Source: Candidatus Saccharimonadia bacterium
GTDB taxonomy: Bacteria > Patescibacteriota > Saccharimonadia > UBA4664 > JBBRNT01
DNA: 64,000 bases
NCBI GenBank assembly: GCA_038230095.1
Contig: JBBRNT010000001.1
Location: forward strand, 112,848 to 176,847
Direction: 5' to 3'
Position 1 is the first letter of the stretch. The number at the start of each line of letters is the position of its first letter. Position numbers and translations under genes: made by a program. Shown here one piece after another: positions 11,939 to 61,284 of the stretch. The notes beneath the pieces were generated by a model. It was not told the DNA's origin. It ran no database searches and saw only the letters and a program-made list of their open reading frames with translations.

Positions 11939-11940
11939 CT

Positions 11941-17004: not shown

Positions 17005-17019
17005 TATCCGTAGGATGGA

Positions 17020-17388: not shown

Positions 17389-17598
17389 AGGTTTGAATGT
17401 TTGAATTTAGACTACTGGACTATACCTGATCGTCTGGGCTTTGTAAAGTGTCTCGGGCGCGGTTCGTAGACCGATAGGGGATTATCGGGTACAGTGATCG
17501 AGTATATTGCACGTTCACAATCTGTTTCGGTACAGCTATGTGGCTAGGGGTGACCGCTAGGTAGTTGTACCGAACCATGTAGGGAAAGGGGTGCTGTC

Positions 17599-18444: not shown

Positions 18445-18449
18445 AAACT

Positions 18450-18482
18450 AGCCTGGATCCACAAGGATCCAGGCTTTATCTT
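18450..18482 (+). terminator. Rho-independent terminator
   Basis: AGCCTGGATCC-ACAA-GGATCCAGGCT then TTTATCTT. Confidence 0.65.
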
Positions 18483-18568
18483 ATGATTGTGCTTATGCTA
18501 AGCCGTAATCTTGACAAAAACGCAGTTTCCAGATATGATCACTAATCGTTTTGCGAGAGGTCAATACT

Positions 18569-35561: not shown

Positions 35562-35570
35562 TCTCTACGC

Positions 35571-44107: not shown

Positions 44108-44131
44108 CCAACTTTCGACCGTCCCCGGCAG

Positions 44132-45676: not shown

Positions 45677-45730
45677 TGTTTCCCACTCATAATGCTTTTG
45701 CTATAGTATAGTGTACAAGATGGATGTTAC

Positions 45731-46297
45731 ATGAAGCTGTCACGATACAAGCTTGGAGTCATAATAGTTCTCGTCGTAATCGCTGCTGTCGGTGGTGCGC
45801 TATTTTTTCGTTCAGTCGTCTTGAATGCTCAAAAGAAGGCGAACCAACGCCACGGTGTGCAGCCAACAAAGGCCGAGGAGGGCATTGCCGTCGTGGCAGC
45901 TTTGGTTGCTAAGGATAGCGCCTCGGCAGCGGAGCTGAAACAGGCCAAAACCGACTTGCTTAATCAGCTGGCCAAAGCTACAACCATTCCGGATAAAGTG
46001 GCAATATTGGATACGCTCACGGTTGTTTGCCAAAAGCAGAAGGATCTGGTCTGCGCTAACGAGTACCAAGTACAGGTTTTGCAACTGGACCCCTCCAACT
46101 ACGATAATCTAGTTTCTGCGGGGGAGGCTGCACAGGCTGCGGGCAAGTATGCCGACGCATTAGCTGATTTCCAGAAAGCATTAACGGCTCTTGATACAAA
46201 GTCGAAGAATTACTCATACATGAAAGACTACGTGGACGGCAAGATTACTGAGCTACTGGCGCTGATTGCAAAACCGGCGACTAAGGGCAAATCATGA
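45731..46297 (+). CDS. membrane-anchored TPR-like protein
   Basis: N-terminal TM helix and Ala/Leu-rich helical repeats. ATGA overlap with the downstream giant gene. Confidence 0.5.
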   Translation: MKLSRYKLGVIIVLVVIAAVGGALFFRSVVLNAQKKANQRHGVQPTKAEEGIAVVAALVAKDSASAAELKQAKTDLLNQLAKATTIPDKVAILDTLTVVCQKQKDLVCANEYQVQVLQLDPSNYDNLVSAGEAAQAAGKYADALADFQKALTALDTKSKNYSYMKDYVDGKITELLALIAKPATKGKS

Positions 46298-49200
46298 AGC
46301 GCCTACTCCTACTTATCCCAGTATTATTTGCTACCTTGGTCATGTCCGGGGCTGCACATGCGGCTGCCTGGAGCTTGACTGATACACTGCCAGACCCTGC
46401 ATCCAATGGCCCTGAGATTTACCTAGACATAGCCAAAAGCGGCTGCGGGATTAGGCTGGATGCCCCTATAAGCTATACCAAGGCCTATTATGCAAACGGT
46501 ACGGTAGACTTTAAAGTAAATATAATTGATGGCGACTATGGCGCGGACGGGGCATCGGTGGACTACGGCGGCTGGGGCGGCAATGTAAATCGCGATGCTG
46601 TCTACGATCTATACCCGCTAGACGCGAACGGGAACATTCAGGGAGGCAAGGCACCTGGTGGAGCTGCAAGCGCAGTAGCTGGTCGTACCAATGCTACGGG
46701 TGACGCTGTTTCGCGACACCTAGGCAATGAAATGCCCACTTCCGGCTTTGAGGTGAACTTGACGGCCGAAAACCGTCAACCAACCCAGCGGATTACTAGC
46801 CTAGGCTTATATGGCGTGCTAATTGTAGCCTACTGGTATAACAATAGTTTCTGCGGGCGCATCAATGGGTATAAGCTGCAGGCTATTGGTACTACTGGCG
46901 GCAAAGGTGGTGCTGGCAAATACGCATATATGGGCTATGTAGCCTCTTTTGATGATCCATTCCAGAACGGCACAGGAAGCTATCCGCAAGCTGTTGGCGC
47001 CATGCCTCTATCACTCAGTGGCAAGAAAACCATTGATTTCAAAAGTGGCGTACCATGCGACTTTGAGACGAATCCCGCCTATAACAACACGCTACATCTG
47101 CGATGGCAGGATGCAGATGCCGGAAGTAGGCCTGGGTCCAGTCCGGCGAACGCGGGAATTGGTTTCACTATTACCCAGTACCGAACTGATGCAGGCGGCA
47201 ACCTAGTGCAAGTCGCAGCATTTTCAATAACGGACCCAGCAGATAACTTTGCCCTTGGTGGTAATGGCGAATTCCGCGACTTGGCGTTTACTAGGGCTGG
47301 CGGCGGGACGTACACAGCGGCGTTATCCGGTTCGAATATTCCAGGATCAATTGATGTAACCGGAACTATCGTGGCCCAAAGCGGAGTACAGATAGCAATT
47401 CAGAATAATGATAAATTCGAGTGGAAATGGACCCAAGTTCTGGTTGATAATCATCTGCAGTTGTGGGCACCATTTGATACTATATTTGGCTTTATAAATT
47501 GTACTCCTGCGAGGAACGACTCCATTTGCAGCTGGTCAGGAGGCATACCCGGCAGCGTTCCGGCGGGGAGCACCTTTAACGCCGGTATAACCATGCAAAA
47601 CAGTGGCACTACCACCTGGACGCCTGGGCCTGCCGGCGTGGTAAATTCGTACCTCTTAGGTACAGCGCAGCCACACGATAATACGATTTGGGGGCCAAGT
47701 AGGTATGGGCTGCCATTTGCGGTGGGACCCGGCGGGTCCGTCACCTTCAACGCCACGTTTACCGCACCAACCGCACCAGGAGACTATCCGTTCGCGTTCC
47801 AGATGCTGCAAGAGGGGGTGGAGTGGTTTGGTGGGACCTGCTTTACTACGATAACTGTAAGTGCCATTAATAAAGCCAGCTGCTCAGTTATATTCACCGA
47901 TAGAGCCAGCTACGGCGCCGGTGACACTATAAATGCGGTGGTGCAGTTCTTTAACTCCGGCTCAAAGGACTGGTGGTCGGGCGCAAACTACCACATGGGC
48001 GAAATAGACGGTGTAGGATGGGTGCCGGGCGCCAGAGTGTGGATGCAGCCGAACGGGTATGGTAACCCCACGCCTGAGTGGGTCAGACCAGGACAGTACG
48101 CGACATTCAGCTTTGCAGTAACAGCACCGGCGACGCAAGGCACTTATCCGTTCTCCTGGCAGATGGTTCAAGACGGCGTGGAGTGGATTACCGGGGTGAA
48201 CCCAGTTTGTAGCCTAAATATCCCCGTGACGCAGCCATTCCAGTACACGCTCGATGAGTCCAGCTCCAGCGCTGTCTGGGGTGACCCTACATATCCTGTA
48301 GGCAATTTGGATCTGACCTCGGGCACCATTAATATGACATTCCTTATAAATCCACGGGCCGTGGCGCTGGCATTTGCTCGCACCGGTGACGCTTATAATC
48401 TAGCGCCCTACCTCTTCGGTGGGGGTGGCAGTGTGGCACAGTCTGGCACCTGGGGGCCAGGCCCTTGGAACGGTCAGCCTGGAATAGCACCGGGCGGGGG
48501 CGCCTCGTACTACGTACGCTACAATGTGCCGCGCACCACCCCAGATGGAACCGTCTTCTGTGTGTACTCGGGTATTACGCCGCACGCTTCGTTTGATGGC
48601 GGCCAGCTGCTCTCAAACATCCTTTGTTATACCATTGCGAACCCTCGGTATCCTTATCTGACCACGAGCCAGGGTGATGTACACGCTGGTGCTGCGCCAA
48701 CCTGTACGCTTCCTGGAAGTACGCCGAACAATATTAAGGGCGTGACCGTCCTGAACCAAGGCTCCGTTGGCCAGTTCATAGTGTCGGCTGGTGGGACTAT
48801 TACCGACTTCTCGTCAGGTGGAGTACAGGGGAGTAGTGGGCAGAGTCTACCCGGCTATGGGACCATCTGTAGGCCAGACCTAATAGCCCGGGCCCAGCAG
48901 TACCGCACTGACTACGGCTCTGTTGACCCCGGTGCGTCCTTTGCCCCAACTGCCTACGTACCCGGTACGCTAGCGAGCCGCCTGCTGTACCACGTGGGCC
49001 CGGTAACGCTACAGGCCGGTACCATCTCTGGACGCTATAGCCTAGTAGTTATTGGCGACCTTACCATCAATGGCAACTTGAGCTATGACGGTACACCCCG
49101 GGCGCTGGTGGACCTGCCTTCCCTGGGCATAATTGTGACCGGTAATGTATATATAAGCCCCGGAGTAACTACCATGGTCGGTGCAGTGTTTGCCAACGGC

Positions 49201-49452
49201 ACCATAGACACCTGTAGCCCTTACCAGGCAACGAATTGCAATAACTCCCTGTTTTTGGACGGCTCCATGTACGCCAAGAGCTTTAATTTCAAACGCACTG
49301 GCAACGGAATCCAGGGTGGAGTAGACCAGGGCTTTGCCGAGAATATCCATGGCTCAACCCGTCTGTACATAGCGCCACCACCGGGCTTCAAGGACCTAGC
49401 ACCGATCCAATCTCAGAGCCAAGCACCAAACGAAAAACCACCATCCTACTAG
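46294..49452 (+). CDS. large secreted surface protein (1052 aa) with two tandem FW/NBR1-like Ig domains and a Gly/Thr-rich beta-rich C-terminal region
   Basis: Signal peptide MKRLLLLIPVLFATLVMSGAAHA. Two segments with the four-Trp pattern (MQNSGTTTW...FTAPTAPGDYPFAFQMLQEGVEWFG, and FFNSGSKDWW...VTAPATQGTYPFSWQMVQDGVEWITG). C-terminus has GNVYISPGVTTMVGAVFANGTI beta-helix-like repeats. Confidence 0.6.
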   Translation: MKRLLLLIPVLFATLVMSGAAHAAAWSLTDTLPDPASNGPEIYLDIAKSGCGIRLDAPISYTKAYYANGTVDFKVNIIDGDYGADGASVDYGGWGGNVNRDAVYDLYPLDANGNIQGGKAPGGAASAVAGRTNATGDAVSRHLGNEMPTSGFEVNLTAENRQPTQRITSLGLYGVLIVAYWYNNSFCGRINGYKLQAIGTTGGKGGAGKYAYMGYVASFDDPFQNGTGSYPQAVGAMPLSLSGKKTIDFKSGVPCDFETNPAYNNTLHLRWQDADAGSRPGSSPANAGIGFTITQYRTDAGGNLVQVAAFSITDPADNFALGGNGEFRDLAFTRAGGGTYTAALSGSNIPGSIDVTGTIVAQSGVQIAIQNNDKFEWKWTQVLVDNHLQLWAPFDTIFGFINCTPARNDSICSWSGGIPGSVPAGSTFNAGITMQNSGTTTWTPGPAGVVNSYLLGTAQPHDNTIWGPSRYGLPFAVGPGGSVTFNATFTAPTAPGDYPFAFQMLQEGVEWFGGTCFTTITVSAINKASCSVIFTDRASYGAGDTINAVVQFFNSGSKDWWSGANYHMGEIDGVGWVPGARVWMQPNGYGNPTPEWVRPGQYATFSFAVTAPATQGTYPFSWQMVQDGVEWITGVNPVCSLNIPVTQPFQYTLDESSSSAVWGDPTYPVGNLDLTSGTINMTFLINPRAVALAFARTGDAYNLAPYLFGGGGSVAQSGTWGPGPWNGQPGIAPGGGASYYVRYNVPRTTPDGTVFCVYSGITPHASFDGGQLLSNILCYTIANPRYPYLTTSQGDVHAGAAPTCTLPGSTPNNIKGVTVLNQGSVGQFIVSAGGTITDFSSGGVQGSSGQSLPGYGTICRPDLIARAQQYRTDYGSVDPGASFAPTAYVPGTLASRLLYHVGPVTLQAGTISGRYSLVVIGDLTINGNLSYDGTPRALVDLPSLGIIVTGNVYISPGVTTMVGAVFANGTIDTCSPYQATNCNNSLFLDGSMYAKSFNFKRTGNGIQGGVDQGFAENIHGSTRLYIAPPPGFKDLAPIQSQSQAPNEKPPSY

Positions 49453-49489: not shown

Positions 49490-49518
49490 TAGACAAGCCA
49501 TAGTTGTTATGCTAATGT
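49490..49518 (+). promoter_or_regulatory. candidate promoter for pilM (TAGACA-17-TGCTAATGT)
   Basis: Extended -10 TGnTAATGT ends 7 nt before ATG 49526. Short or leaderless transcript. Confidence 0.35.
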
Positions 49519-49525
49519 CGAAGCA

Positions 49526-50563
49526 ATGGCATTATTTAATACAGACAATGACTACTTCGGTTTAGACATTGGCGAGACGGGTATCCGGCTGGTCCAGCTA
49601 CGCAAGTCGGCTGGTAAACCGGTGCTGGTGACGCTTGGGGATATACCCGTGCCGGGTAACTTGCTTATGAGCGATGCCCCGATCGACCAGGATAAGCTGT
49701 CCAGTATCATCCGCCAGCTAGTGAAGGATCTGGGTGTGTCGACAAATAGCGTGGCGCTTGGTCTGCCAGCCAATAAGGTCTATGCTGCCGTGATAACCAC
49801 CCCGAAACTGACCGAAGCCGAGCTGTCGAAGGCTATCCGCTTCCAGGCTGATCAGTACGTACCGGTGGCAATTGACCAGGTGAAGTTGGATTGGACGGTA
49901 CTAGGACCCGGCAAGACCGACAACGAGCTGGAAGTTCTACTAGTAGCGTGCCCCAATACTGTAGCCGACAAATACCTATCTATCGCCGAGAACGCGGGGC
50001 TAGACGTAATGTCTTTGGAGACAAACTCTATGGCGCTGTACCGGGCAGTGGTCCCTACTGGCAGTCCGGCAGTGGTGGTGATTGATATTGCCAATACCGA
50101 CACTGATCTGGCCATTGTCTACAATGATACCCCTCGCTTGTTGCGCTCTATTGCGGTGGGCGGAAATACATTCCTAAAGGTTGTGTCGCAAGGTCTGGGA
50201 CTTGATGAAGTGCAGGCAGACCAGTTCATTAAGAAATTTGGTCTGACGCAAACCAAGCTCGAAGGACAGGTCTACAAAGCCATTAAGCCCAGCATTGACC
50301 TCCTGATTGAAGAAGTGGGGAAGAGCATTAAGTTCTTTGCTACTCGCTACCCAGAGGTAAAAATTGAGAAGCTCGTGCTGACTGGTGGTAGCTCACAGAT
50401 GCTGGAGCTTCCGACCTATCTGGCGAATGCAACCAGGCTACCAGTTGAAATTGCTAACCCGTGGATTAATATAGGCTACCCAGCAAGCATGCACGAGCGA
50501 CTGCTGGGCCTGGCCCACACCTATGGTGTGGCAGCTGGCCTTGCCCAAAGGATGTACCTGTAA
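49526..50563 (+). CDS. pilM: type IV pilus assembly protein PilM (actin-like ATPase fold)
   Basis: YFGLDIGETGIRLVQL N-terminus, FtsA/PilM fold length, and gene order pilMNO. Confidence 0.85.
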   Translation: MALFNTDNDYFGLDIGETGIRLVQLRKSAGKPVLVTLGDIPVPGNLLMSDAPIDQDKLSSIIRQLVKDLGVSTNSVALGLPANKVYAAVITTPKLTEAELSKAIRFQADQYVPVAIDQVKLDWTVLGPGKTDNELEVLLVACPNTVADKYLSIAENAGLDVMSLETNSMALYRAVVPTGSPAVVVIDIANTDTDLAIVYNDTPRLLRSIAVGGNTFLKVVSQGLGLDEVQADQFIKKFGLTQTKLEGQVYKAIKPSIDLLIEEVGKSIKFFATRYPEVKIEKLVLTGGSSQMLELPTYLANATRLPVEIANPWINIGYPASMHERLLGLAHTYGVAAGLAQRMYL

Positions 50564-51159
50564 TGGCTGTAAGCATTAATCTGCTACCCGATGTTCGTCA
50601 GGCCCGAATTCGGGATGCGGAACGACGCCAGCTACTCAGCATAGTGCTAGTGGGCACACTCGTACTATGTGGCCTGGTGGCCGGGGGACTGTTTGCCGTA
50701 ACCACCGCGCAACAGAGCCAAATTAAGGGGCTATCGGCGAGTATTACTGACAAGAAGGCCCAACTGACCAAGGACCCCGACCTAATTAAGATTCTGACTG
50801 CGCAGCAACAAGTGAGCAGCCTAGACCGGCTGCTGACCAATAAGCGCTATGTCACCAAAGTATTCAATATTTTGACTGAGATCTCGCCTACAGCTAAGGA
50901 ACTCATGCTGACTAATCTAGAAATTGACGACAAGAACCTAATGAAGGTGACTGTAACGGGCCGAGACTTCTTGGTGGCCGATCGATTCGTTAAGGCACTA
51001 GTGGCTAGCAACGTCAAGATTGGTAGCAAGGCGGCCGAGGGTAACCTACCAGACTTTACCAATGTGCAGCTATCGACGGTGGCAACGGATACTGGCAGTC
51101 GGACAATATTTAGTATAACGATGCAATTAGCTGATGGAGTGTATGATGCCAAGCGCTAA
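50563..51159 (+). CDS. pilN: type IV pilus assembly protein PilN
   Basis: INLLP motif at the N-terminus, single TM, periplasmic coiled coil. TAATG overlap with pilM. Confidence 0.8.
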   Translation: MAVSINLLPDVRQARIRDAERRQLLSIVLVGTLVLCGLVAGGLFAVTTAQQSQIKGLSASITDKKAQLTKDPDLIKILTAQQQVSSLDRLLTNKRYVTKVFNILTEISPTAKELMLTNLEIDDKNLMKVTVTGRDFLVADRFVKALVASNVKIGSKAAEGNLPDFTNVQLSTVATDTGSRTIFSITMQLADGVYDAKR

Positions 51160-51757
51160 ACAACAAAAAGCCGAGCTTAGCTTCAATAACTACCTTATGC
51201 TGGTGGTCTTGGTTTGCATACTAGCTGTGGGGGCGACGGTATTTGCCGCAAACACTATGGTACAGAGCTACTTGCGCAATCAGAAACTGATTACCGGCAA
51301 GACGGCAGCCGACAAGCAGCTAAGCGAGAACATTGATTCTTTCGGTAAGCTAAAACAGCAGTATGGTGGACTCGGCGCTACTGCCGACTACCTAAACCTA
51401 GCGCTGCCTTCTGTGCCCAACTATCCAGGCTTGGTTTCGACGGTGGCCAATATGGCCGGTATTAGCGGGGTTAAGCTGAAGTCCATTGCACCCGCAGAGA
51501 CTACGGACTCTGCCAATGCTATAGCAGCGGCACCTTCGGCAAATGCACCTGTCACCTATCCTGTGAACGTGATCGTGGACGGTAACTATGCGGCTGTTCA
51601 GACCTTTCTGAAGAATATGGAGCTATCAGCCAGGCAGTTCAAGATTACCACCTTGAGTATAACCGGCCCAAGCGCTGCCCAGACACTGACTATAAGCGTA
51701 CTGGCTTATCACCAGACAGCTGCGACAATCACCGAAAAGACGGAGGCAGTTAAATGA
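51134..51757 (+). CDS. pilO: type IV pilus assembly protein PilO-like
   Basis: Single TM plus extracytoplasmic domain, at the PilO position. The true start is probably ATG 51143 or 51146 after GGAG. Confidence 0.6.
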   Translation: MECMMPSAKQQKAELSFNNYLMLVVLVCILAVGATVFAANTMVQSYLRNQKLITGKTAADKQLSENIDSFGKLKQQYGGLGATADYLNLALPSVPNYPGLVSTVANMAGISGVKLKSIAPAETTDSANAIAAAPSANAPVTYPVNVIVDGNYAAVQTFLKNMELSARQFKITTLSITGPSAAQTLTISVLAYHQTAATITEKTEAVK

Positions 51758-52017
51758 AACGCAAAGACGTCACCTATCTAATAATTACGGTGGTCATTCT
51801 AGCTGCGACGGGTATTATGGCCTACTTCTTCCTGTTCCCCCAGAAGTCGACGGGCACTGGTGCTAAATCTAGCTATGAAGTCATAACCCCGATCGACGCT
51901 ACGCTTACTGGTGATAAGCTCAATCGTATCCTTGATTCCACGAAGCTGAAAGACTTCAGCGTTCCAGTAGACCTAAAGGGTCTTGGCAATACGACGCCGT
52001 TTGGACCGTTGCAATAA
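51754..52017 (+). CDS. small membrane-anchored protein in pilus operon (87 aa)
   Basis: ATGA overlap with pilO. One TM (YLIITVVILAATGIMAYFFLF). Confidence 0.45.
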   Translation: MKRKDVTYLIITVVILAATGIMAYFFLFPQKSTGTGAKSSYEVITPIDATLTGDKLNRILDSTKLKDFSVPVDLKGLGNTTPFGPLQ

Positions 52018-52035
52018 CCGACAGGGGAGGGCCAG

Positions 52036-53826
52036 ATGCTATCGGTTGAGAGCCAGCAACGAATTGAGAAACTGCTACTGTCGAACAATATTATTTCCAA
52101 GCCTGACCTAGAGAAGGCCCGTCTAGATGCCATTGCTTCGAACAAGCCGCTCTTGACCTACCTGGCTGAGAAGCAGCTAGTGGCGGACGAAGAGCTGACT
52201 AAGGTCTCGGCCCAGGCCTCTACAGTGCCGTATGTGAACCTGACTGGCGTGTCTGTAGTGAAGGATATACTAGATGCACTCCCTAAGACGAGCGCTGAGA
52301 CCTATATGGCCGTGCCGTTTGGACAGCTCCAAGGCCGCTTAGCAGTAGCCATGCTCGACCCCACCAATGTGCAGGCCATAGACTTCCTCGCACGCAAGAG
52401 CGGTCGACAGATTGCCTCGTTCATGGCCTCTCGGGCTAGCATTGAGCACGTTCTGAGCCAGTATCGTAGCGATGTGGGCGCAGACGTGAGCGCTGCCATC
52501 CAGAATGCCGATAATGCAGTGGTGCCAACGGCTTCACAAAATCGGCAAGCGGCGGCAGATACCAAGGAGCTTCAGAACCTGGTTCAGGATGCTCCAATCA
52601 CCAGGGCACTGAATGCCATCCTCGACTACGCTGCACAGTCTCGAGCGTCGGATATTCATATTGAGCCGCGCGAGAATGAGCTAGCTATCCGTTACCGAAT
52701 CGACGGGATCCTTCAAGAATCCATGAAGCTTCCGAAGTCGGTTGAACCAGCGCTAATTAGCCGAATAAAGATTTTATCCAATTTGAAGATTGATGAGCAC
52801 CGCATCCCCCAAGACGGGCAGTTCCAGATACATTCCGGCGGTAAAGACATAGACCTGCGTATTGCTATTGCGCCCGTGGTGCACGGAGAGCAGGTGGTCA
52901 TACGGTTGCTCGACAAGAGCTCAACGGTATTGACGCTGGAGTCGCTGGGGTTCAAGGGCCGGGCATTTCGACTTATTAAGGAGGGTATCCACCGGCCACA
53001 CGGTATGACGCTGTCGACGGGTCCGACTGGGTCGGGTAAGTCAACCACACTGTACGCGGTGATCTCAGCTATTAACGATGTGGCGATCAATATTGTGACA
53101 CTGGAAGACCCGGTAGAGTACAAGATGGATGGTATCAACCAAATTCAGGTCAATAACGATGTGGGTCTGACATTTGCCTCCGGCCTGCGATCTATCCTAC
53201 GTCAAGACCCTAACGTGGTGATGGTAGGGGAGATCCGAGATAAGGAGACGGCCGATCTAGCCGTGCAAGCGGCACTGACGGGTCATACCGTGCTATCGAC
53301 GCTGCACACCAACTCCGCTGCCGGTGTCTTGCCCCGTATGCTCGACATGCAGATTGAGCCATTTCTGATAGCTTCTACTATTAACACCGTGATTGGTCAG
53401 CGACTAGTGCGTAAGCTTGGTGATGCAAAGGATGTGGAAACCTTTGAGTCCAACCAGCTCGAGACGGACTCTATTAACCGAGTGGTGGGGGACCTACTGC
53501 CCAAGACCAAGGCCGATGTGGCGCGAGTGGCGGAGGACCTAGGATACGATAACTTGCCCCTTGGTGGTCAAAACGCTTATACTTTATATAGACCAAAGAC
53601 ACGGGCCGACGGTAGCAAGAACTACAAGGGACGTATCGGGGTGTATGAGGTGTTTGCAATGACCGAAGCTATGGAAAAATTACTGCTCGGGCGTGCCACC
53701 ACTTCGGAGGTACAGACCCAGGCTCAGAAAGATGGAATGATAACGATGAAACAGGATGGTTACCTGAAGGCACTAGTGGGAATGACTACGCTCGAAGAAG
53801 TTGAGCGAGTGGCGGCGGACGCATAA
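52036..53826 (+). CDS. pilB: type IV pilus extension ATPase PilB (GspE family)
   Basis: N-terminal GSPII domain, Walker A GPTGSGKSTTL, Asp and His boxes, and tetracysteine-like region. Confidence 0.92.
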   Translation: MLSVESQQRIEKLLLSNNIISKPDLEKARLDAIASNKPLLTYLAEKQLVADEELTKVSAQASTVPYVNLTGVSVVKDILDALPKTSAETYMAVPFGQLQGRLAVAMLDPTNVQAIDFLARKSGRQIASFMASRASIEHVLSQYRSDVGADVSAAIQNADNAVVPTASQNRQAAADTKELQNLVQDAPITRALNAILDYAAQSRASDIHIEPRENELAIRYRIDGILQESMKLPKSVEPALISRIKILSNLKIDEHRIPQDGQFQIHSGGKDIDLRIAIAPVVHGEQVVIRLLDKSSTVLTLESLGFKGRAFRLIKEGIHRPHGMTLSTGPTGSGKSTTLYAVISAINDVAINIVTLEDPVEYKMDGINQIQVNNDVGLTFASGLRSILRQDPNVVMVGEIRDKETADLAVQAALTGHTVLSTLHTNSAAGVLPRMLDMQIEPFLIASTINTVIGQRLVRKLGDAKDVETFESNQLETDSINRVVGDLLPKTKADVARVAEDLGYDNLPLGGQNAYTLYRPKTRADGSKNYKGRIGVYEVFAMTEAMEKLLLGRATTSEVQTQAQKDGMITMKQDGYLKALVGMTTLEEVERVAADA

Positions 53827-54896
53827 TGGAAGCTGTAGTACCCAAAATTGAGCTTATGCTCGAAGCGGTTCTTAAGCTGGACGCCTCAGACTTGCATTTG
53901 CAAGCGGGCGTACCACCTATGCTCCGTGTTGACGGCGCCTTGCGCCCCATGGCTGAGGCGGCTGTGCTGGATGCCGATGCAATAGAGAAGCTTATCTTCT
54001 CTATCCTAGATGATGAACAGAAAGATGTGCTCATTAAGGATAAGGAAGTGGACTTCTCGTTTGCCTTTGGCGACTTGGGCCGGTTCCGGGTAAATGCCTT
54101 CCATGAGCGTGGTAATCTAGCGGCCGCGTTGCGCCTGATCCCAACCAAGATCCGGACCATGCAAGAGCTGGGTCTACCCAAGGTAATGGACAAGTTCTGT
54201 GACTTCCCGCGTGGTTTGGTGCTGGTAACTGGGCCGACGGGTTCTGGTAAGTCGACTACTCTGGCGGCCATATTGAACCAGATTAACACAGATAAGTCGT
54301 TGCATATTCTGACGATTGAGGACCCTATTGAGTACGCCCACGAGTCCAAGAAGTCTATCGTAGTACAGCGAGAGATCCACTATGACACCTACAGCTTCGG
54401 TGCAGCGCTGCGCTCCAGCCTGCGCCAAGACCCTGATGTGGTACTAATCGGTGAGATGCGCGACCTAGAGACGATTGCGGCAGCGATTACGATTGCCGAG
54501 ACGGGGCACCTAGTACTGGCAACCCTGCACACCAACTCCGCAGCGCAGTCCATAGACCGTATGATTGATGTCTTCCCGCCCCACCAACAGCAGCAGATCC
54601 GGATCCAGCTGGCAGGTATACTCCAGGGCATTTGTGCGCAACGCCTGGTGCCTACCATTGGTGGTGGCCGTATGGCTATTTCAGAGATCCTAATGGTGAA
54701 TAACGCGGTGCGTAATATTATCCGCGAGGGTAAAACCCACCAGCTGGACGCTGTGATCCAAACTGGTGCCGAGGAAGGCATGCAGTCTATGGATAAGACC
54801 CTGGTGCAGTTTATCCAGCAGGGCAAGATAACCTATGACGAAGCCAAGAACTATGCTGTTGATCTTAAAGAACTGGATAGGATGATGCGCGGATGA
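53826..54896 (+). CDS. pilT: type IV pilus retraction ATPase PilT
   Basis: LVLVTGPTGSGKSTTLAAILNQIN and the PilT-length (356 aa) AAA+ core. TAATGG overlap with pilB. Confidence 0.92.
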   Translation: MEAVVPKIELMLEAVLKLDASDLHLQAGVPPMLRVDGALRPMAEAAVLDADAIEKLIFSILDDEQKDVLIKDKEVDFSFAFGDLGRFRVNAFHERGNLAAALRLIPTKIRTMQELGLPKVMDKFCDFPRGLVLVTGPTGSGKSTTLAAILNQINTDKSLHILTIEDPIEYAHESKKSIVVQREIHYDTYSFGAALRSSLRQDPDVVLIGEMRDLETIAAAITIAETGHLVLATLHTNSAAQSIDRMIDVFPPHQQQQIRIQLAGILQGICAQRLVPTIGGGRMAISEILMVNNAVRNIIREGKTHQLDAVIQTGAEEGMQSMDKTLVQFIQQGKITYDEAKNYAVDLKELDRMMRG

Positions 54897-54903
54897 GTAC
54901 GCC

Positions 54904-56115
54904 ATGTTGACATACGTCTACAGCGCTAAGAATGCTGAAGGGGTCTTGATTAAGGCCGAGGTACAGGCCGAGAACGAGCAATCGGCGGCGAAGCTGCTTA
55001 TGTCCCAGGCGCTGTTTCCGATTACCATCGAAAGCAAAGAAGCTGCTAATAAACTGCCCATCAACCTACCGTTTCTGAACCAAGTACCAAACAAAGAGCG
55101 AGTTATTTTTACCCGACAACTCTCCACGTTGATTAACGCAGGCCTACCACTTCTGCAGTCTATCCGAACGGTGAGCGACCAGGTGGTGAATAAGAAGCTG
55201 AAAGAAGTGCTATCGAAGGTGATTGCCGCGGTCGAGGGTGGGGCTAGTCTGTCGGCCGCGTTTGCGCAGCACCCCGCGGTGTTTAACCAGATCTACGTGA
55301 GCCTAGTAGCGGCTGGTGAGACCTCGGGTACGCTAGACAAGTCGCTGGCTCGGCTGGCCGACCAGCAGGAGAAAGACGCCGCGATTGCGTCCAAGATCCG
55401 TGGCGCCCTGATCTACCCAGTGATCGTGCTATTCGTGATTGTTGCGGTGGTGGTATTTATGCTATCTACACTGCTCCCACAGGTGTCGCAGCTCTATAAA
55501 GATCTGAAAAAAACCCTGCCCTTAGTCACCCGTATTCTGGTATCTATTTCCGACTTTGTTGGACACTTTTGGTGGCTCGTGGCCATACTGCTGGGTGGGC
55601 TAGTGTATGCGCTGACGCGCTACGTGAAGTCCACGCAAGGACGAGAGGTCTGGGACAACTTGAAACTACACCTGCCTATATTTGGAGTAATATTTCAGAA
55701 AGTGTACATGGCACGGTTTGCGCGAACTACGTCGGTATTGCTTATGAGCGGTATCCCTATGCTGGAAACCCTGGAGATTGTGAAAAAGGCCGTGAGCAAC
55801 GTCATTGTGGGCAACGCTATTGAGCGCGCCATGGGCAAGGTGAAGGCAGGTAAATCACTTTCAAGTAGCTTAGAGAATGAGGATAGCTTTATTCCCCTAG
55901 TGCCTCAGATGACCAAGATTGGTGAAGAGTCTGGCGGCATAGATGACATGTTGGGCCGGGTGGCGGGCTTCTACGAGAATGAGGTGGATGAGGCGGTAAA
56001 GAACCTCTCTACCATCATGGAGCCCATCCTAATGGTAGTTCTGGGTGTAGTGGTTGGCGGCGTGATAGTGGCAGTTCTGCTGCCGGTGTACTCACTCGTT
56101 GGGCAAGGCCTCTAG
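54904..56115 (+). CDS. pilC: type IV pilus platform protein PilC (GspF family)
   Basis: Two GspF repeats each followed by TM helices. Confidence 0.9.
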   Translation: MLTYVYSAKNAEGVLIKAEVQAENEQSAAKLLMSQALFPITIESKEAANKLPINLPFLNQVPNKERVIFTRQLSTLINAGLPLLQSIRTVSDQVVNKKLKEVLSKVIAAVEGGASLSAAFAQHPAVFNQIYVSLVAAGETSGTLDKSLARLADQQEKDAAIASKIRGALIYPVIVLFVIVAVVVFMLSTLLPQVSQLYKDLKKTLPLVTRILVSISDFVGHFWWLVAILLGGLVYALTRYVKSTQGREVWDNLKLHLPIFGVIFQKVYMARFARTTSVLLMSGIPMLETLEIVKKAVSNVIVGNAIERAMGKVKAGKSLSSSLENEDSFIPLVPQMTKIGEESGGIDDMLGRVAGFYENEVDEAVKNLSTIMEPILMVVLGVVVGGVIVAVLLPVYSLVGQGL

Positions 56116-56193
56116 CGTAAGTATTGACGTTGGTAAGCATAACTATTAAGGTATTTGTAAGCAATAATTTGCAATAAGGAAGGTGAGATTCGA

Positions 56194-56661
56194 ATGCTAA
56201 AGAAACTAATGAAAGAGAATAAGGGTTTTACCCTTATTGAAATCGTCCTGGTCCTGGCCATTGCCGGACTGATCCTTGTCGTGGTGTTCCTGGCCGTCGG
56301 TGGTGCACAGCGTGCTCGCCGAGATACGCAACGTAAGGAAGATGTAGCTAAGGTAGTGGCCCAAATTGAGAGCTATGCGGGTAACAACAATGGCTGTTAT
56401 CCTGGCTCAGCCGCCGCCACTGGCTGTGCTTCGGCAGTTACGTTTGCCGCGTTTGCCGCAAGTAACTACATTACCGGTATTACGCTGACAGATCCCCTGG
56501 CCGGCGTTAACTACACCTATGTGGCTGCAGTTACACCTACAGCAGCTACGCCAATGGGTCTGGTCTATGTCTATGGTACTGACTGTGCCGGTGTTGCAGG
56601 ACGCACGTACAATCTTCGAGCAAACCTCGAAGCTGGTAGTGTCTGCCGCGACAACAAATAG
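56194..56661 (+). CDS. pilA: type IVa major pilin
   Basis: Class III signal MLKKLMKENKG/FTLIEIVLVLAIAGL with Phe+1 and Glu+5. Short globular domain with a Cys pair. Confidence 0.85.
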   Translation: MLKKLMKENKGFTLIEIVLVLAIAGLILVVVFLAVGGAQRARRDTQRKEDVAKVVAQIESYAGNNNGCYPGSAAATGCASAVTFAAFAASNYITGITLTDPLAGVNYTYVAAVTPTAATPMGLVYVYGTDCAGVAGRTYNLRANLEAGSVCRDNK

Positions 56662-56673
56662 CTAAGACAGCTT

Positions 56674-56701
56674 AAAAAAAGACCCGTAAGGGTCTTTTTT
56701 T
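56674..56701 (+). terminator. Rho-independent terminator after major pilin gene
   Basis: A7-GACCC-GTAA-GGGTC-T7 perfect hairpin. Confidence 0.85.
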
Positions 56702-56724
56702 ATTGGCTCTGGTATAATCTGGTT

Positions 56725-57531
56725 ATGGTTTTTCTTCTGGGTGTATTGGGTCTTATCTTCGGTAGCTTCTCAGGGGCAACGGCTTGGCGTATTCATAAAC
56801 GTATGGAGGCAGAGGACGCCGGCAAGCAGATAGATGAGAAGTACTCCGTAAGCCGGGGGCGTTCGTTGTGTGAGTCCTGCGGCCATGAGCTGGCAGCGCT
56901 GGACCTGGTGCCGCTACTAAGCTGGCTGGTCCTGCGGGGTCGGTGCCGCTACTGCCGGACCCGGCTGTCGTGGGAGTATCCGCTAATTGAGCTGGTGATG
57001 GCGGGGCTATTTGTTGTGTCATACCTGGTACTTGCGCCCACAAGCCTCAGCCAGTGGCTGTACTTTGCCTACTGGCTCTATCTGGTAACTAGTTTGTTGA
57101 TCCTGGCGGTATCGGACCTGAAATGGATGCTGCTGCCGGACGTGGTGCTGCTACCCGCACTGGCCCTGGCGACTGCCCTGGCTCTGGCGCAGCTGCTAGC
57201 GGGTGGATCAGCGGGCATGCTCCTTGCCGGGCTGGTGGCGGGTGGTGCGTTTCTAGCCCTGTCTGTCCTGTCTGGTGGGCGGGGGATGGGGATGGGGGAC
57301 GTGAAGCTGGCGGCGCTCATGGGGGTGGTACTGGGCCCGCTACACACAGTGATAGCTATGCTAATTGGATTTAACAGTGCCGCGGTGGTCAGTCTGGGAC
57401 TCATTGCACTCCATCGCAAACGGGCCAAAGACCACATACCGTTTGGGCCGTTTCTTATAGCCGGGCTGGTAATTGCCCTGCTCTGGGGTGCCCCCATTAG
57501 CACCTGGTACCTCCGGGTGGCCGGACTATAG
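56725..57531 (+). CDS. pilD: prepilin peptidase (A24 family) PilD
   Basis: Cytoplasmic zinc motif CESCGHEL...CRYCRTRL, catalytic Asp regions, 7-8 TM. TGGTATAAT lies 6 nt upstream of the ATG. Confidence 0.88.
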   Translation: MVFLLGVLGLIFGSFSGATAWRIHKRMEAEDAGKQIDEKYSVSRGRSLCESCGHELAALDLVPLLSWLVLRGRCRYCRTRLSWEYPLIELVMAGLFVVSYLVLAPTSLSQWLYFAYWLYLVTSLLILAVSDLKWMLLPDVVLLPALALATALALAQLLAGGSAGMLLAGLVAGGAFLALSVLSGGRGMGMGDVKLAALMGVVLGPLHTVIAMLIGFNSAAVVSLGLIALHRKRAKDHIPFGPFLIAGLVIALLWGAPISTWYLRVAGL

Positions 57532-57566
57532 CTGCGCAGCATAAGCACCATGGTATAATTTGAGCA

Positions 57567-58193
57567 ATGGCGCGTAATCAATCTCAAGCTGGATTTACCC
57601 TGATCGAACTCGTTCTAGCCCTGACTATCTCGGCGGCGCTTATTCCGATTGTCTTAAACGGCCAGCGAGAAATACGCTCGCGGGCACAGTTCTCCGATGG
57701 CGTGGAGCGGCTGCGAAACGACTTGGTGAATATTAAGAACGAAGCCAATACAACTGTAAGTACCCGCCAGATTGCTCCTGGCACTGACAGCCGCTACGCT
57801 GTCGCGGGCAAGGTGGTCATACTAGATAATACGGGTAGTAGCGGTGCATTGCGCCTGACTATTCGTACGTTGCGGTTTGATGAGTCGGTAAGCCCGCTAC
57901 AACTCAGCTTTGACCCAGATCCGACTGCCACTACCACGCAGGATATACCCTGGGGAGTACGGATTGATCCTGCTGTACCGGTGCCACTGCCGCAGATTGT
58001 AGTGTACTTGCGTAACGATGATACTGGGCATTTGCAGACGTATTTCCCCGCTAGCATAGTTGCTACCACTACCTATGCTAGCTATGTGCAGGCCGGGGTG
58101 GCTAAGACAATAAACTTGATTGATCCCGATAACCACAAGGGTACAGTGGTAGTAGATCCTATTTTTGGCAACGTAACGAGGACAATCCAATGA
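57567..58193 (+). CDS. minor pilin / pseudopilin (prepilin-type N-terminal domain)
   Basis: MARNQSQAG/FTLIELVLALTIS. TGGTATAAT lies 7 nt upstream of the ATG. Confidence 0.7.
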   Translation: MARNQSQAGFTLIELVLALTISAALIPIVLNGQREIRSRAQFSDGVERLRNDLVNIKNEANTTVSTRQIAPGTDSRYAVAGKVVILDNTGSSGALRLTIRTLRFDESVSPLQLSFDPDPTATTTQDIPWGVRIDPAVPVPLPQIVVYLRNDDTGHLQTYFPASIVATTTYASYVQAGVAKTINLIDPDNHKGTVVVDPIFGNVTRTIQ

Positions 58194-58735
58194 GACAATG
58201 GCTAGATCTACGCACAATCCTACGTAATCAGCGCGGCGATACGCTGGTGGAGATTACGATCGCCCTGGCTATTCTGTCATTTGTGCTCCTCAGCTCGTTT
58301 AATCTGGCCTCTTTCTCGTTCCGCCTCGGACAGATGGCCAAGGAGCGAACCCAGGGCGTGCAGCTGGCGCAGGAGCAGGCCGAGGCGCTCCGTAACTTCC
58401 GCGACAACTCGAGCTGGGCCAACTTCAATAGCGGTGCCGTCGGTACATTTCACTTTGAGAAGCAAAGTGGGGTATGGGCCAAAATAGCTGGCAATTACCA
58501 GCCACTACTGAACAGCCAGGGTACGCCATTTCTTGTTAATATCGAGCGCCTAGGTGACGTCATTATTAATGCCGGCCCACCAATTATTTCCGTGAATAGC
58601 TACCGAGTAACCTCGAAGTGGGCTCCTCTGGCCGGCCAGTCCTGCCCACTGAACGGCAGCGGTGTGCGCGAGTGTACCGTCCAGTTTCTCACGAATCTAG
58701 GCCGTACCGACGATCTAGCTCCGGTGGCAAACTAG
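58190..58735 (+). CDS. minor pilin-like protein
   Basis: RG/DTLVEITIALAILSFVLL has Glu+5 but an unusual Asp+1. ATGA overlap. Confidence 0.6.
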   Translation: MRQWLDLRTILRNQRGDTLVEITIALAILSFVLLSSFNLASFSFRLGQMAKERTQGVQLAQEQAEALRNFRDNSSWANFNSGAVGTFHFEKQSGVWAKIAGNYQPLLNSQGTPFLVNIERLGDVIINAGPPIISVNSYRVTSKWAPLAGQSCPLNGSGVRECTVQFLTNLGRTDDLAPVAN

Positions 58736-59379
58736 TGAAGCCGGCAACCCAACGACAGCGGGGATATACCCTAATAGAGCTGATTATGGCCATGGCTATC
58801 TTTAGCTTTATGCTGTTAATTATTGTGGGGGGATACCTAAATGTGTTTAAGCTATACCAGAACGGATTAGCTTCGCGTGATACTCAGCAGAACGGCCGAT
58901 TCGGTATGGAGGAGATGGTCCGTACTGTCCGTGAGAGTAAGGACGCGCTGGGTGTGGTGTCGGGCGGTGACTTTGACTATGTATGCCTGCAGAGTCAGAC
59001 CGGGGCTATGAGTAAGCTCATGACCGCGGCTTCGGGGAGCTACCAGGTACTACAGATAGTGGTCCTGCCTAACCCCGCGGCATTTGACCTGGCCACCTGT
59101 GGGGCGCTGAGCGCGGCAACTGCTGGCGTTGCCACCGAGATCCTATCGAGTACCAATGTGGAAGTTGTGAGCTTTAAGCCTACGGTACTACTGGCACCAA
59201 CGGCTGCGGGATCGAAAAGTGTTATGCTAGAACTGAAGATTGCCACCCACAAGAATGGTCTTAGCTTCGGGGTAGATACCGTGACGCAGAAGACTTGCAG
59301 TACGGTGACCACATCCCAGTTCTGTTCTATTACTACCTATGAATCGAGCGCGACAGTGCGCGGAAAGGACGAATTATAA
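58735..59379 (+). CDS. minor pilin (prepilin-type N-terminal domain)
   Basis: QRQRG/YTLIELIMAMAIFSFMLL. The GTG start overlaps the upstream stop (TAGTG). Confidence 0.65.
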   Translation: MKPATQRQRGYTLIELIMAMAIFSFMLLIIVGGYLNVFKLYQNGLASRDTQQNGRFGMEEMVRTVRESKDALGVVSGGDFDYVCLQSQTGAMSKLMTAASGSYQVLQIVVLPNPAAFDLATCGALSAATAGVATEILSSTNVEVVSFKPTVLLAPTAAGSKSVMLELKIATHKNGLSFGVDTVTQKTCSTVTTSQFCSITTYESSATVRGKDEL

Positions 59380-60368
59380 TGCAGACCAACGCAACAACAC
59401 GACAGCGGGGCATTGTATCTCTCCTAACAACGGTGATTGTGAGTACCTTGCTGCTGATCATCACTACGAGTATGGCTGCTCTCATGACGGGGGAGCTCCA
59501 CCAAGCGACCGATTCCGACCAATCTGCAAAGGCCTACTTTGCCGCTGAGTCCGGCATCGAAGATGCCCTTCAGCGGATAAAACCGCTCATTAAGAGTGGC
59601 CAATCGATAAGTAATGACGGTACTTGTGTGCAACCAGCGTTGAACACTTCGGCTATTCAGGACCCGCTGGGACTGGCTGTCACCTGCGAGCGAGTGGTGG
59701 AGCTGACCAATGCCCTCGCTGGTAAACTGGATCGGGATGCAGCTCGGCAAATAGAGTTACTCGGCGCTACCGGCATGAACCAGGTAGACCTGTATTGGAA
59801 TATTGATCCGCGGTTTACACCCGTGGGTGGCGACGCCTTGGCGGTTGCCAATATGGCTACTATGGAAGTGCTGATTGCCGGCTACGATCGGGTGGTGAAC
59901 CTAGGTCCGGGCAATATTGATCAGCTGAAAACGGTAACAATCCGCCCAGGGGCAAACGCCACACCGACGAGTAACATCGGCATTAATGCCATCCAGACGG
60001 CCTCGTGCGTAACGCCGCCCCAGTCTGCTACCTACAACTGTCACTTCACTATGACTGGCTTTAATGGTACGGCGAAGAACTATGTGATCCGCCTGAAGAC
60101 TCGAAACGCTGGCACCCACTTCAGTCTGCGGCCGCTGGCTGGTGGAGCTACGGTAACCGTACCGGACAACTACATTACGGTGGACGTCACCGCTAGTTCT
60201 GGTGAGGTCTACCGACGGATTGTGCGCAAAATACCACGCAGTGCTGGTCTGGTGAGTGGCCTAGAATTTGTACTCTTTAGTGACACTGAAATCTGTAAGA
60301 AGTTTGGCGTGGTTGACACCGCGGGTGTGCCAAACGTGCAATACCCTGGCTGTCCGGCCTTCCCGTAA
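59379..60368 (+). CDS. PilX-like minor pilin
   Basis: TRQRG/IVSLLTTVIVSTLLLIITTSMAAL resembles the PilX N-terminal domain. No Glu+5. TAATG overlap. Confidence 0.6.
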   Translation: MQTNATTRQRGIVSLLTTVIVSTLLLIITTSMAALMTGELHQATDSDQSAKAYFAAESGIEDALQRIKPLIKSGQSISNDGTCVQPALNTSAIQDPLGLAVTCERVVELTNALAGKLDRDAARQIELLGATGMNQVDLYWNIDPRFTPVGGDALAVANMATMEVLIAGYDRVVNLGPGNIDQLKTVTIRPGANATPTSNIGINAIQTASCVTPPQSATYNCHFTMTGFNGTAKNYVIRLKTRNAGTHFSLRPLAGGATVTVPDNYITVDVTASSGEVYRRIVRKIPRSAGLVSGLEFVLFSDTEICKKFGVVDTAGVPNVQYPGCPAFP

Positions 60369-60369: not shown

Positions 60370-61284
60370 CTAGACCTCTTTGGAGTGGAACCGGTCGTGG
60401 ACACTTTTGAGCTGTGGGTCGGTAATGTGGGTGTAGATCTGGGTAGTGGCAATATTGGCATGGCCCAATAGGCCCTGCACGCTGCGAATATCGGCACCAT
60501 TTATAAGTAGATCGGTGGCAAAGGAGTGGCGAAGAGTGTGGGGTGTCACGGTCTTAGTAATACCAGCTGCCAGAGCGTAGTGGTGTACCATGCGCTGAAT
60601 ACTGCGGGCCGTGAGGCGAGTAAAGGAGCCTCCTTCGCTCGGGTCCTTGGAGCCAGCATAGTGGATAAACAGCGGCTTAAACTCATCGTGACGGGTCTTC
60701 AGGTAGGCGTCCAGCCAGTCCGCGGCCTGCTGGCTTATGTAGACCGGACGATCTTTCTGGCCCTTACCGCGGACGACAAACTCTCGCCGATCTAGATTAA
60801 TGTGCTCGGTGTTGAGATTGACTAGCTCGGATACCCGCAGGCCACTAGAGAACAAGAGCTCCAGAATGGCGCGGTCGCGCAGGCCAATAGGATTGGTAGT
60901 ATCCATGCTACCAAATAGGCGGGATAGCTCGTCGGCCTCCAGGAAGCCTACCTGTGGTCGCACAGTCTTAGCCAACTCCACCTTGGCCGAGTCGAGGGCG
61001 GCTATGTCGCGCTTGGCCAGGTACTTGAGGAAACTGCGGAGGGCAATGAGATGGTAGTTGGTAGTGGCTTTGGAGAGCTCATCTCCCCGATTGTCCTTCT
61101 GGCGGGCTAGTGCGAGGCGCCACTTGCGAATGGTGTCATTGGTAATTGCAGCGATGGGTGCATCATCGGTAAACTCCACCAAACGTTGGAGGTAGCGGTC
61201 GTAGTTGGCAATGGTGGCCTGTGACCGATTCTGTTCGATCTCCAGGTACTCTAGGTAGTCTGTAACTAATTCGCTTATGTTCAT
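60370..61284 (-). CDS. tyrosine recombinase XerC/XerD family
   Basis: N-terminal SAM-like domain. C-terminal R...HxxR...Y motifs (HTLRHSFATDLL, LLGHANIATTQIYTH). Confidence 0.9.
   Translation of the reverse strand: MNISELVTDYLEYLEIEQNRSQATIANYDRYLQRLVEFTDDAPIAAITNDTIRKWRLALARQKDNRGDELSKATTNYHLIALRSFLKYLAKRDIAALDSAKVELAKTVRPQVGFLEADELSRLFGSMDTTNPIGLRDRAILELLFSSGLRVSELVNLNTEHINLDRREFVVRGKGQKDRPVYISQQAADWLDAYLKTRHDEFKPLFIHYAGSKDPSEGGSFTRLTARSIQRMVHHYALAAGITKTVTPHTLRHSFATDLLINGADIRSVQGLLGHANIATTQIYTHITDPQLKSVHDRFHSKEV

Follow-up and report, generated by a model that had tools for sequence, protein, structure and literature searches.

Thirteen uninterrupted open reading frames (ORFs) make up a type IV pilus (T4P) locus on contig JBBRNT010000001.1 of a Candidatus Saccharimonadia bacterium. 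They lie on the plus strand at positions 49,526-60,368 of the window, the 64-kb stretch of DNA (~54 % G+C) that we analysed and to which every negative result given for the window refers. The genes have hardly any intergenic space between them and mostly overlap, in the order pilM, pilN, pilO, a gene for an 87-aa protein, pilB, pilT, pilC, the major pilin gene, pilD and four pilin-like genes (Table 1). An earlier interpretation of the same DNA, here called the sequence-only reading, had described a complete secretin-less pilus locus with both an extension and a retraction ATPase and five pilin-class genes. All of the genes that it named were recovered as uninterrupted ORFs at the positions given for them, and both ATPases were confirmed by family models, PilB by T2SSE and PilT by TIGR01420 above its cut-off. 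The five pilin-class genes are the major pilin gene and the four that follow pilD, and the N_methyl domain was recognised in the products of four of them, the major pilin and three of the pilin-like proteins encoded after pilD. In pilB, pilC and pilD, the genes that the sequence-only reading had singled out for a check on pseudogenisation, there was neither a frameshift nor any sign of a pseudogene, so the objection that it had raised against itself falls away.

Families were assigned with Pfam and NCBIfam hidden Markov models (HMMs) against their curated cut-offs, profiles were compared with each other in HHalign, structures were predicted with AlphaFold2 (AF2), and folds were searched with Foldseek against the PDB. 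Relatives were obtained by scanning one genome per species for PilB and keeping the best 80 loci, which had PilB identities of 56-72 %; synteny was assessed by running each window protein by tblastn against these 80 related loci.

Table 1 Features of the pilus locus and its immediate flanks. Gene lengths are given for the Southlakia T4P1 locus and for the window; ^ marks the predicted cleavage site.
Feature	Position	Strand	Product (aa)	Gene length, Southlakia / window (nt)	Evidence
Secreted FW-domain protein gene	46294..49452	+	1052		two N_BRCA1_IG (NBR1 FW-type) domains (Pfam); upstream of pilM
Extended -10-like TGCTAATGT	49510..49518	+			7 nt before pilM ATG; putative leaderless promoter of the pilM-to-pilC unit
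pilM	49526..50563	+	345	1053 / 1038	PF11104 2.7e-47; TIGR01175 182 bits vs cut-off 133; actin-like cytoplasmic alignment protein
pilN-like	50563..51159	+	198	723 / 597	N-terminal INLLP; one transmembrane helix
pilO	51134..51757	+	207	687 / 624	PF04350 4.3e-07, 30.6 bits vs cut-off 22
Small gene	51754..52017	+	87	228 / 264	single-pass membrane protein of an unnamed family; ATGA overlap with pilO
pilB	52036..53826	+	596	1767 / 1791	extension ATPase; T2SSE 2.8e-119 and MshEN; GGGGAGGG Shine-Dalgarno site upstream
pilT	53826..54896	+	356	1071 / 1071	retraction ATPase; TIGR01420 472.5 bits vs cut-off 319.1; TAATG overlap with pilB
pilC	54904..56115	+	403	1209 / 1212	platform protein; two T2SSF domains (PF00482), 3.2e-61
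Major pilin gene	56194..56661	+	155	465 / 468	MLKKLMKENKG^FTLIE; N_methyl 2e-06, TIGR02532
Intrinsic terminator hairpin AAAAAAAGACCC GTAA GGGTCTTTTTTT	56674..56701	+			3' of the major pilin gene
Extended -10 TGGTATAAT	56710..56718	+			6 nt before pilD ATG; putative leaderless promoter
pilD	56725..57531	+	268	876 / 807	prepilin peptidase/N-methyltransferase; A24_N_bact 1.6e-26 and Peptidase_A24 1.9e-12
Extended -10 TGGTATAAT	57551..57559	+			7 nt before first minor-pilin ATG
Minor pilin 1	57567..58193	+	208	738 / 627	MARNQSQAG^FTLIE; N_methyl 9.1e-06
Minor pilin 2	58190..58735	+	181	630 / 546	RNQRG^DTLVE; N_methyl 7.1e-05; ATGA overlap with minor pilin 1
Minor pilin 3	58735..59379	+	~214	702 / 645	KPATQRQRG^YTLIE; N_methyl 4.9e-08; TAGTG overlap with minor pilin 2
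Large pilin-like gene	59379..60368	+	329	1155 / 990	RQRG^IVSLL; TAATG overlap with minor pilin 3
XerC/D-type tyrosine recombinase gene	60370..61284	-			Phage_integrase 4e-43 and SAM-like N-terminal domain; convergent neighbour, outside the machine

The catalytic proteins of the locus retained their motifs. In PilB the Walker A (GPTGSGKS), GEIRD and HTN motifs were intact. The same three were intact in PilT, which also carried AVRNIIRE at residue 294, a signature of the AIRNLIRE type. TIGR01420, the model that PilT passed, is a curated model for type-4a PilT/PilU, and PilT was the best conserved protein of the locus, with 65-83 % identity in the relatives. PilD contained two CxxC motifs (CESC and CRYC), D131 and GMGDVK, all of them intact.

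The pilN product begins with MAVSINLLPD, in which INLLP corresponds to the motif through which PilN binds PilM; 66 of 69 pilN orthologues have an NLLP-like motif. Compared as profiles, the pilN family and a PilO-like family were aligned by HHalign over 146 columns (87.6 %, E = 3.5e-06). The positional orthologue of this gene in Southlakia, SEML1_0105, has been assigned an EpsM/PilO-like fold (Wang 2023, PMC10633639). The adjacent pilO overlaps the end of pilN, with ATG at 51146 as an alternative start.

In the products of four of the five pilin genes, a leader of 9-16 residues precedes the motif G^(F/Y/D)T(L)(I/V)E. A PDB sequence search with the major pilin matched solved pilins through the N-terminal helix alone, including a weak match to the helix of Streptococcus sanguinis PilE1. 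The major pilin occurs in 2-4 tandem divergent copies in several related loci (L002, L009, L012, L022, L042, L044, L060, L064 and L066) and once in the window. The minor pilins were the most divergent proteins of the locus among the relatives, and their order is altered in L006, L011 and L012. Minor pilin 2 has an unusual Asp at +1 past the predicted cleavage Gly, and GDTL(I/V)E recurs in L009, L024, L052 and L078. For minor pilin 3, the sequence makes GTG 58735 the most likely start, rather than the GTG at 58618 of the mechanical ORF.

The fifth pilin-like protein keeps the Gly and has no Glu5, as in GspK/PilX-type proteins. The sequence-only reading had named it PilX-like; the lack of Glu5 and a match to PilX_N speak for the name, but that match (E = 0.0067, 16.8 bits) was under the Pfam cut-off of 25.5, which leaves the label tentative. 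A homologue search gave 4 sequences, and the AF2 model built on this alignment was poor (pLDDT, the predicted local distance difference test, 58), with a helix at residues 6-72 and a beta-rich domain at 97-286. Its Southlakia orthologue, SEML1_0116, has been assigned GspK-type pili-subunit and galactose-binding-like domains (Wang 2023, PMC10633639). We consider the protein a candidate for a PilX/GspK-like cap.

Neither a secretin nor PilP had a family match in the locus or in any window ORF of at least 200 aa, where Pfam scans returned housekeeping genes only. The sequence-only reading had stated that pilQ and pilP are missing, as would suit a monoderm; this held within the window, and its genome-wide form reaches beyond that stretch. 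No second pilus or com locus was found in the window outside 49.5-60.4 kb by tblastn of the locus proteins and a six-frame scan for prepilin motifs.

The 80 best PilB loci came mostly from metagenome-assembled genomes titled Saccharimonadia, Saccharibacteria or Patescibacteria, the rest having generic or other titles, three of which name other groups (Parcubacteria, Nanoarchaeia and Burkholderiaceae). Most of these loci share one order: a module of the FW-domain protein, pilM-N-O, the small gene, pilB-T-C, one to three pilin copies, pilD, the minor pilins and xer on the opposite strand. In the rearranged loci (L014, L017, L022 and L056) the FW module, pilN/O, the small gene, pilC, the pilins and the minor pilins come first, followed by pilM-pilB-pilT-pilD and xer. 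Some close relatives have insertions within the pilus cluster, which fall between pilB and pilT in L004, L009 and L015. The insertions in L005, at 11800-13990 and 16560-18920, occupy the pilB/pilT and pilC/pilA gaps and consist of opposite-strand, high-GC ORFs, with a 785-aa secreted repeat protein among them.

The same locus has been described in cultivated Saccharibacteria. In N. lyticus TM7x, T4P locus one (TM7x_00415-00475) is a 13-gene locus with pilC1, pilB1, pilT, pilM1N1O1, pilD and five pilins, and its conservation extends across Saccharibacteria, both within clade G1 and beyond it (Grossman 2025, PMC12206443). Its gene content is that of the window, again with no secretin, and its last pilin, PilX1, is large and has no predicted PilD signal (PMC12206443); the 87-aa gene is absent from the genes named for it (Grossman 2025, PMC12206443). 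The window belongs to a different, environmental Saccharimonadia lineage, and its pilins are too divergent from those of TM7x for sequence matching. The T4P1 locus of S. epibionticum ML1 (SEML1_0104-0116) has an identical 13-gene order with near-identical gene sizes (Table 1), is followed by a convergent tyrosine recombinase (SEML1_0117), and has EF-P, TlyA and YchF genes upstream; all 13 genes are essential by transposon sequencing (Wang 2023, PMC10633639 Tables S1/S2). The EF-P, TlyA and YchF genes also lie upstream in the window, syntenic with Southlakia. The pilus cluster was found to be conserved in TM7 genomes, the PilB inhibitor quercetin was tried against the motility of strain TM7i, and T4P were concluded to enable twitching (Xie 2022, PMC9894109). 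Twitching has also been reported in Southlakia (Wang 2023, PMC10633639). In TM7x, pili are visible by cryo-electron tomography, and the locus-one pilins could not be deleted and are essential, the thick 3.2-nm pilus and twitching having been assigned to locus one by elimination (Grossman 2025, PMC12206443). The link to host attachment and motility that the sequence-only reading had drawn is thus a published one for the orthologous locus (PMC9894109, PMC10633639, PMC12206443).

The components that define a type IVa pilus were found in large part: PilB, PilT, PilC, PilM-N-O (PilN indirectly), PilD and class III pilins were present in the window, and PilQ and PilP were not. The features that mark a Saccharibacterial T4P-1 locus, the 13-gene order and the convergent tyrosine recombinase, were both there. 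We hold with high confidence that the thirteen genes are the conserved T4P-1 locus for a type IVa-like pilus and that they belong to a member of the Saccharimonadia (Saccharibacteria/TM7, Patescibacteria), and the description of the locus as a complete secretin-less T4P system with extension and retraction ATPases and five pilin-class genes is supported. The locus is already known, since its orthologues have been described and in part characterised.

Several points weigh against this assignment or against what may be drawn from it. Both PilB and PilC were under the NCBIfam equivalog cut-offs; for PilB the best model, type IV-A PilB, gave 521 bits against a cut-off of 676. A tetracysteine zinc motif is typical of PilB/GspE, and the PilB encoded here contains zero cysteines and hence no such motif. 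The pilN product had no Pfam or NCBIfam match, permissive thresholds included, so that its name stands on position, the INLLP motif, the transmembrane helix and the HHalign alignment with the PilO family, and not on an HMM. For the last pilin-like protein, a Foldseek search of the PDB with the AF2 model (pLDDT 58) returned generic beta-sandwich matches only, with TM-scores of at most 0.23. The orthology to the TM7x and Southlakia loci was established by gene order, gene sizes and published annotation together with the 80 intermediate loci, and it was by elimination, the genes being essential, that the thick pilus of TM7x was linked to T4P-1. The leaderless starts described below are predicted from base sequence. 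What is proposed on function in this organism derives wholly from orthology: the roles in the mechanism come from the established functions of the protein families, and the phenotype would be the one described for the orthologues in N. lyticus TM7x, in S. epibionticum and in strain TM7i.

The family scores bear on whether the locus might instead encode a type II secretion system (T2SS)-like pseudopilus that exports proteins and forms no external filament. PilB, PilC and the pilin scored almost equally on GspE, GspF and GspG/H models (PilC reached ~380 bits with both the GspF and the Thermus PilC models), and automatic annotation gives the Southlakia orthologues T2SS names. PilT, however, is bona fide by its score above the curated cut-off, and together with the PilM/N/O set it is a hallmark of pili, whereas GspC, GspD, GspL and GspM were not found with Pfam and NCBIfam profiles. 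Moreover, pili were seen by cryo-electron tomography in TM7x (PMC12206443) and twitching was reported in TM7i (PMC9894109) and Southlakia (PMC10633639). We rejected the pseudopilus as very improbable on account of PilT, PilM/N/O and the missing Gsp proteins.

The loss of every cysteine from PilB, zinc-binding motif included, could also be taken as a sign that the pilus genes here are decaying or no longer functional, as could the 7.5-kb block that separates ychF from pilM relative to Southlakia. Against this, PilB is cysteine-free in 7 of 75 relatives too, and 43 of the 75 have no double CxxC; at least two CxxC motifs were present in the other 32, including the closest relative, L005 (CxxC...CxxC). 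All 13 ORFs are full length, and the motifs, translational coupling, promoters and terminator have been kept. With full-length ORFs, intact motifs and conserved signals, a decayed locus was rejected as the least probable of the explanations that we considered, its chance being close to nil.

As the sequence-only reading had noted, several genes overlap in a manner that would couple their translation: TAATG junctions join pilM/N, pilB/T and minor pilin 3 to the last pilin-like gene, ATGA junctions join pilO to the 87-aa gene and minor pilin 1 to 2, and minor pilins 2 and 3 meet in TAGTG. The terminator that it had assigned to the major pilin gene was equally well founded, being a perfect hairpin with a T-run (-20.6 kcal/mol, z = -4.47, with 0 of 200 shuffles as stable), and a hairpin with a T-run is visible at the same place in many relatives. 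A generic scan for consensus promoters and terminators yielded 9 sites against 9.9 expected for both classes and overlooked this real pilin terminator. Rfam and tRNA scans found no RNA genes and no rRNA in the window.

The sequence-only reading had also proposed leaderless promoters for the pilin and peptidase units. This was borne out for pilD and the minor pilins, where an extended -10 element stands 6-7 nt before the ATG, but not for the major pilin gene, which is preceded by a gap of 78 nt, carries AAGGAAGGTGAG ahead of its ATG and has a Shine-Dalgarno-like site in 54 of 65 relatives. Three copies of TGGTATAAT are present in the window, where 0.37 would be expected, and two of them precede pilD and the first minor pilin. 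A TAnnnT hexamer lies 4-10 nt before the pilD start in 36 of 51 relatives, only 7 having a Shine-Dalgarno-like site, and (C)TTATG(C/G)TATA(A/C)T is found at the same place before the first minor pilin in many relatives. The extended -10 of pilM, which the earlier promoter claim had left out, is similarly conserved: in 61 of 76 related loci the pilM ATG has a TAnnnT hexamer 4-10 nt ahead of it, usually after TG and mostly without a Shine-Dalgarno site. Conservation of this arrangement across species rules out chance matches.

Eight real gene starts in the window, among them those of pilM, pilD and minor pilin 1, share the TGnTAnnnT-to-start geometry, which is a habit of this genome rather than a property of the pilus locus, and leaderless starts appear to be common in it. 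Elsewhere in the window, extended -10 elements lie 6-7 nt before the starts of ychF (41846, minus strand), an EamA transporter (13906, minus strand), a 225-aa ORF (20285), murB (29279) and a Wzy_C/TPR protein (61388). The ychF start is probably this ATG at 41846 rather than the mechanical GTG at 41969.

In 43 of 61 related loci the major pilin start is preceded, at a distance of 22-70 nt, by the element TAAGC(A/G), often in the form CATAAGCAT, where chance would give 0.04 copies per 80 nt. The window has copies at 56134-56139 and 56158-56163. The element is probably a pilin promoter or regulatory site. The arrangement of signals suggests four transcription units, a leaderless pilM-to-pilC unit, the major pilin gene, a leaderless pilD and a leaderless, coupled minor-pilin operon. 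A major pilin gene with its own putative promoter, Shine-Dalgarno leader and terminator would fit high, separate expression of the pilin.

The gene between pilO and pilB encodes a small membrane protein to which no name has been given. Its family has the consensus MKxKD, then a transmembrane helix, then VEVV.PI..F..PD..YFN...NPT..I.IG...N..PF, and the conserved extended tail of the 87-aa protein likewise ends in N..PF. In essentially all collinear loci, pilO and pilB are separated by an ORF of 70-96 aa that has a transmembrane helix at its N-terminus and that in most cases overlaps the stop codon of pilO; in Southlakia and the window alike this overlap is 4 nt. An HMM of the family had matches in 79 of 81 sequences (the 80 related loci and the window). 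No match to the HMM was found in the rearranged locus L017, and in three rearranged loci the match lies after pilN-pilO and directly before pilC, away from pilB; by staying next to pilN-pilO in these rearrangements, the small gene shows a tie to the PilN/PilO pair. The small unnamed membrane protein is thus a near-universal member of the T4P-1 locus and linked to PilN-PilO.

Searched as a single sequence, the 87-aa protein had only 2 matches, and a profile search with the family reached 219 proteins, none with a Pfam domain and all named 'hypothetical protein' save two with automatic FliL labels. An exhaustive search raised this to 656 clusters at 50 % identity; among the 150 listed, most were 77-90 residues long. 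AF2, run on a 46-sequence alignment, was confident of a helix at residues 3-27 and left the remainder unstructured at low confidence, and such a modelled tail is compatible with folding only on a partner. The protein stands after pilO, where pilP would be in a diderm type IVa pilus locus, and we know of no counterpart to its family in the T4P loci of S. sanguinis or Clostridium perfringens. Its positional counterpart in Southlakia, SEML1_0107, is essential (Wang 2023, PMC10633639). We give an even chance to its being an unrecognised core pilus subunit, the tail of which would bind the PilN/PilO ectodomains, in the place of PilP or as a link to the cell wall.

The locus is flanked, as the sequence-only reading had it, by the FW-domain protein on one side and the XerC/D recombinase on the other, both identified by Pfam matches. 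A convergent xer follows in 42 of the 80 related loci, wherever the contig extends so far. On the other side, the C-terminal 120-330 aa of the FW protein (about 48500-49450) behave as a module, homologues of which are found upstream of pilM in 53 of 80 loci, mostly adjacent to it and sometimes as tandem paralogues (e.g. L011, 3898-4911 and 6423-7370). In rearranged loci the module lies upstream of pilN/pilO (e.g. L014, 1176-1631). Permissive sequence searches found no Pfam or PDB relative of it. A pilus-associated partner is a possibility for this module on grounds of its position, one that we rate below the subunit reading of the 87-aa protein.

In Southlakia, ychF abuts pilM and there is no FW module at that position, whereas in the window a block of ~7.5 kb (41996-49452) is inserted between them, containing genes for a 703-aa protein, an Lnt-like protein, a 188-aa TPR protein and the FW-domain protein. 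The Lnt-like apolipoprotein N-acyltransferase gene is on the minus strand and is noteworthy for a presumed monoderm.

If the proteins act as their families do, PilD would cut the short leader after Gly-1 and methylate the new N-terminus of the five pilin-class proteins, and the four minor pilin-like proteins, the last of them large, without Glu5 and GspK/PilX-like, would form a priming or tip complex. PilC would serve as the membrane platform. Cytoplasmic PilM would bind the INLLP tail of PilN, and the alignment complex would consist of PilN and PilO, very probably with the 87-aa membrane protein. Hexameric PilB would polymerise the 155-aa major pilin and PilT would depolymerise it, such that cycles of extension, attachment and retraction would give twitching motility and contact with a surface or host. 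The filament would cross a monoderm envelope, which would account for the lack of a secretin and PilP.

Diderm type IVa pili, such as those of Pseudomonas aeruginosa and Myxococcus xanthus, are built from PilMNOPQ, PilBTC, PilA, PilD and minor pilins. The window locus resembles them in its PilB/PilT antagonists, PilC, the binding of PilM to the PilN N-terminus predicted from its motif, the PilN/PilO pair, the Gly-1/Glu5 pilins and four minor pilins; it differs in that it has no PilQ, PilP, TsaP, FimV or PilY1, its PilB has no zinc motif, and its genes are gathered in one single locus. In monoderms such as S. sanguinis and C. perfringens, T4P are secretin-less and encoded in a single locus with PilT, PilMNO and several minor pilins. 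In all of these respects the window locus is like them, with no sequence relationship beyond the core families. By contrast, a much smaller thickness, 3.2 nm, has been reported for the filaments of Saccharibacteria (PMC12206443).

Retraction by PilT could serve purposes other than twitching. Were the locus chiefly a competence pilus, DNA would be delivered to ComEC by PilT, with twitching as a secondary function. Natural competence is found in Saccharibacteria, where transformation requires comEC (Wang 2023, PMC10633639), and T4P-2 of TM7x is reported to make no contribution to competence, which would make T4P-1 the sole candidate pilus for DNA uptake; recA-recX and a single-stranded DNA-binding protein (SSB) are also encoded nearby in the window. 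On the other hand, comEC mutants of Southlakia are viable and its T4P1 genes are essential (Wang 2023, PMC10633639), so the essential role is not competence. The ComGA, ComGB and ComGC models also scored far below the PilB, PilC and pilin models, and there are no com genes in or beside the locus. A pilus devoted chiefly to DNA uptake is in our view unlikely, and competence and motility roles are not mutually exclusive.

A somewhat stronger, though still doubtful, alternative is that T4P-1 is the only pilus of this organism, binds the host as T4P-2 does in oral clade G1, and is chiefly an adhesion organelle. Saccharibacteria outside clade G1 conserve locus one only (Grossman 2025, PMC12206443), and there was no second pilB, pilC or pilM in the 64-kb window. 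The recA-recX genes of TM7x sit within T4P locus two (Grossman 2025, PMC12206443). In the window, recA-recX lies at 34467-36200, 13 kb upstream of pilM, with no pil genes adjoining, which lends weak support to a single-pilus lineage. The minor pilins and the pilin copy number vary strongly among relatives, as expected of host-contact proteins. The view, however, extends over 64 kb of a contig of 181,563 nt, with room for a second locus elsewhere in the genome, and host binding by T4P-1 is conjecture by analogy. The T4P-1 assignment itself, as a twitching-type pilus orthologous to those of TM7x and Southlakia, remains the one that we prefer.

The locus, its conservation and its likely role have all been published and are ordinary for this group, and existing knowledge is therefore unchanged. 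Few machines have been shown to be indispensable to Saccharibacteria as epibionts, and since T4P are one of them, a correct annotation in an environmental lineage is useful. What is added is comparative: the proposed four-unit operon model, the unnamed small membrane protein and the synteny of the FW-protein module. In TM7x and Southlakia, both now open to genetic manipulation, these three points could help to direct experiments.

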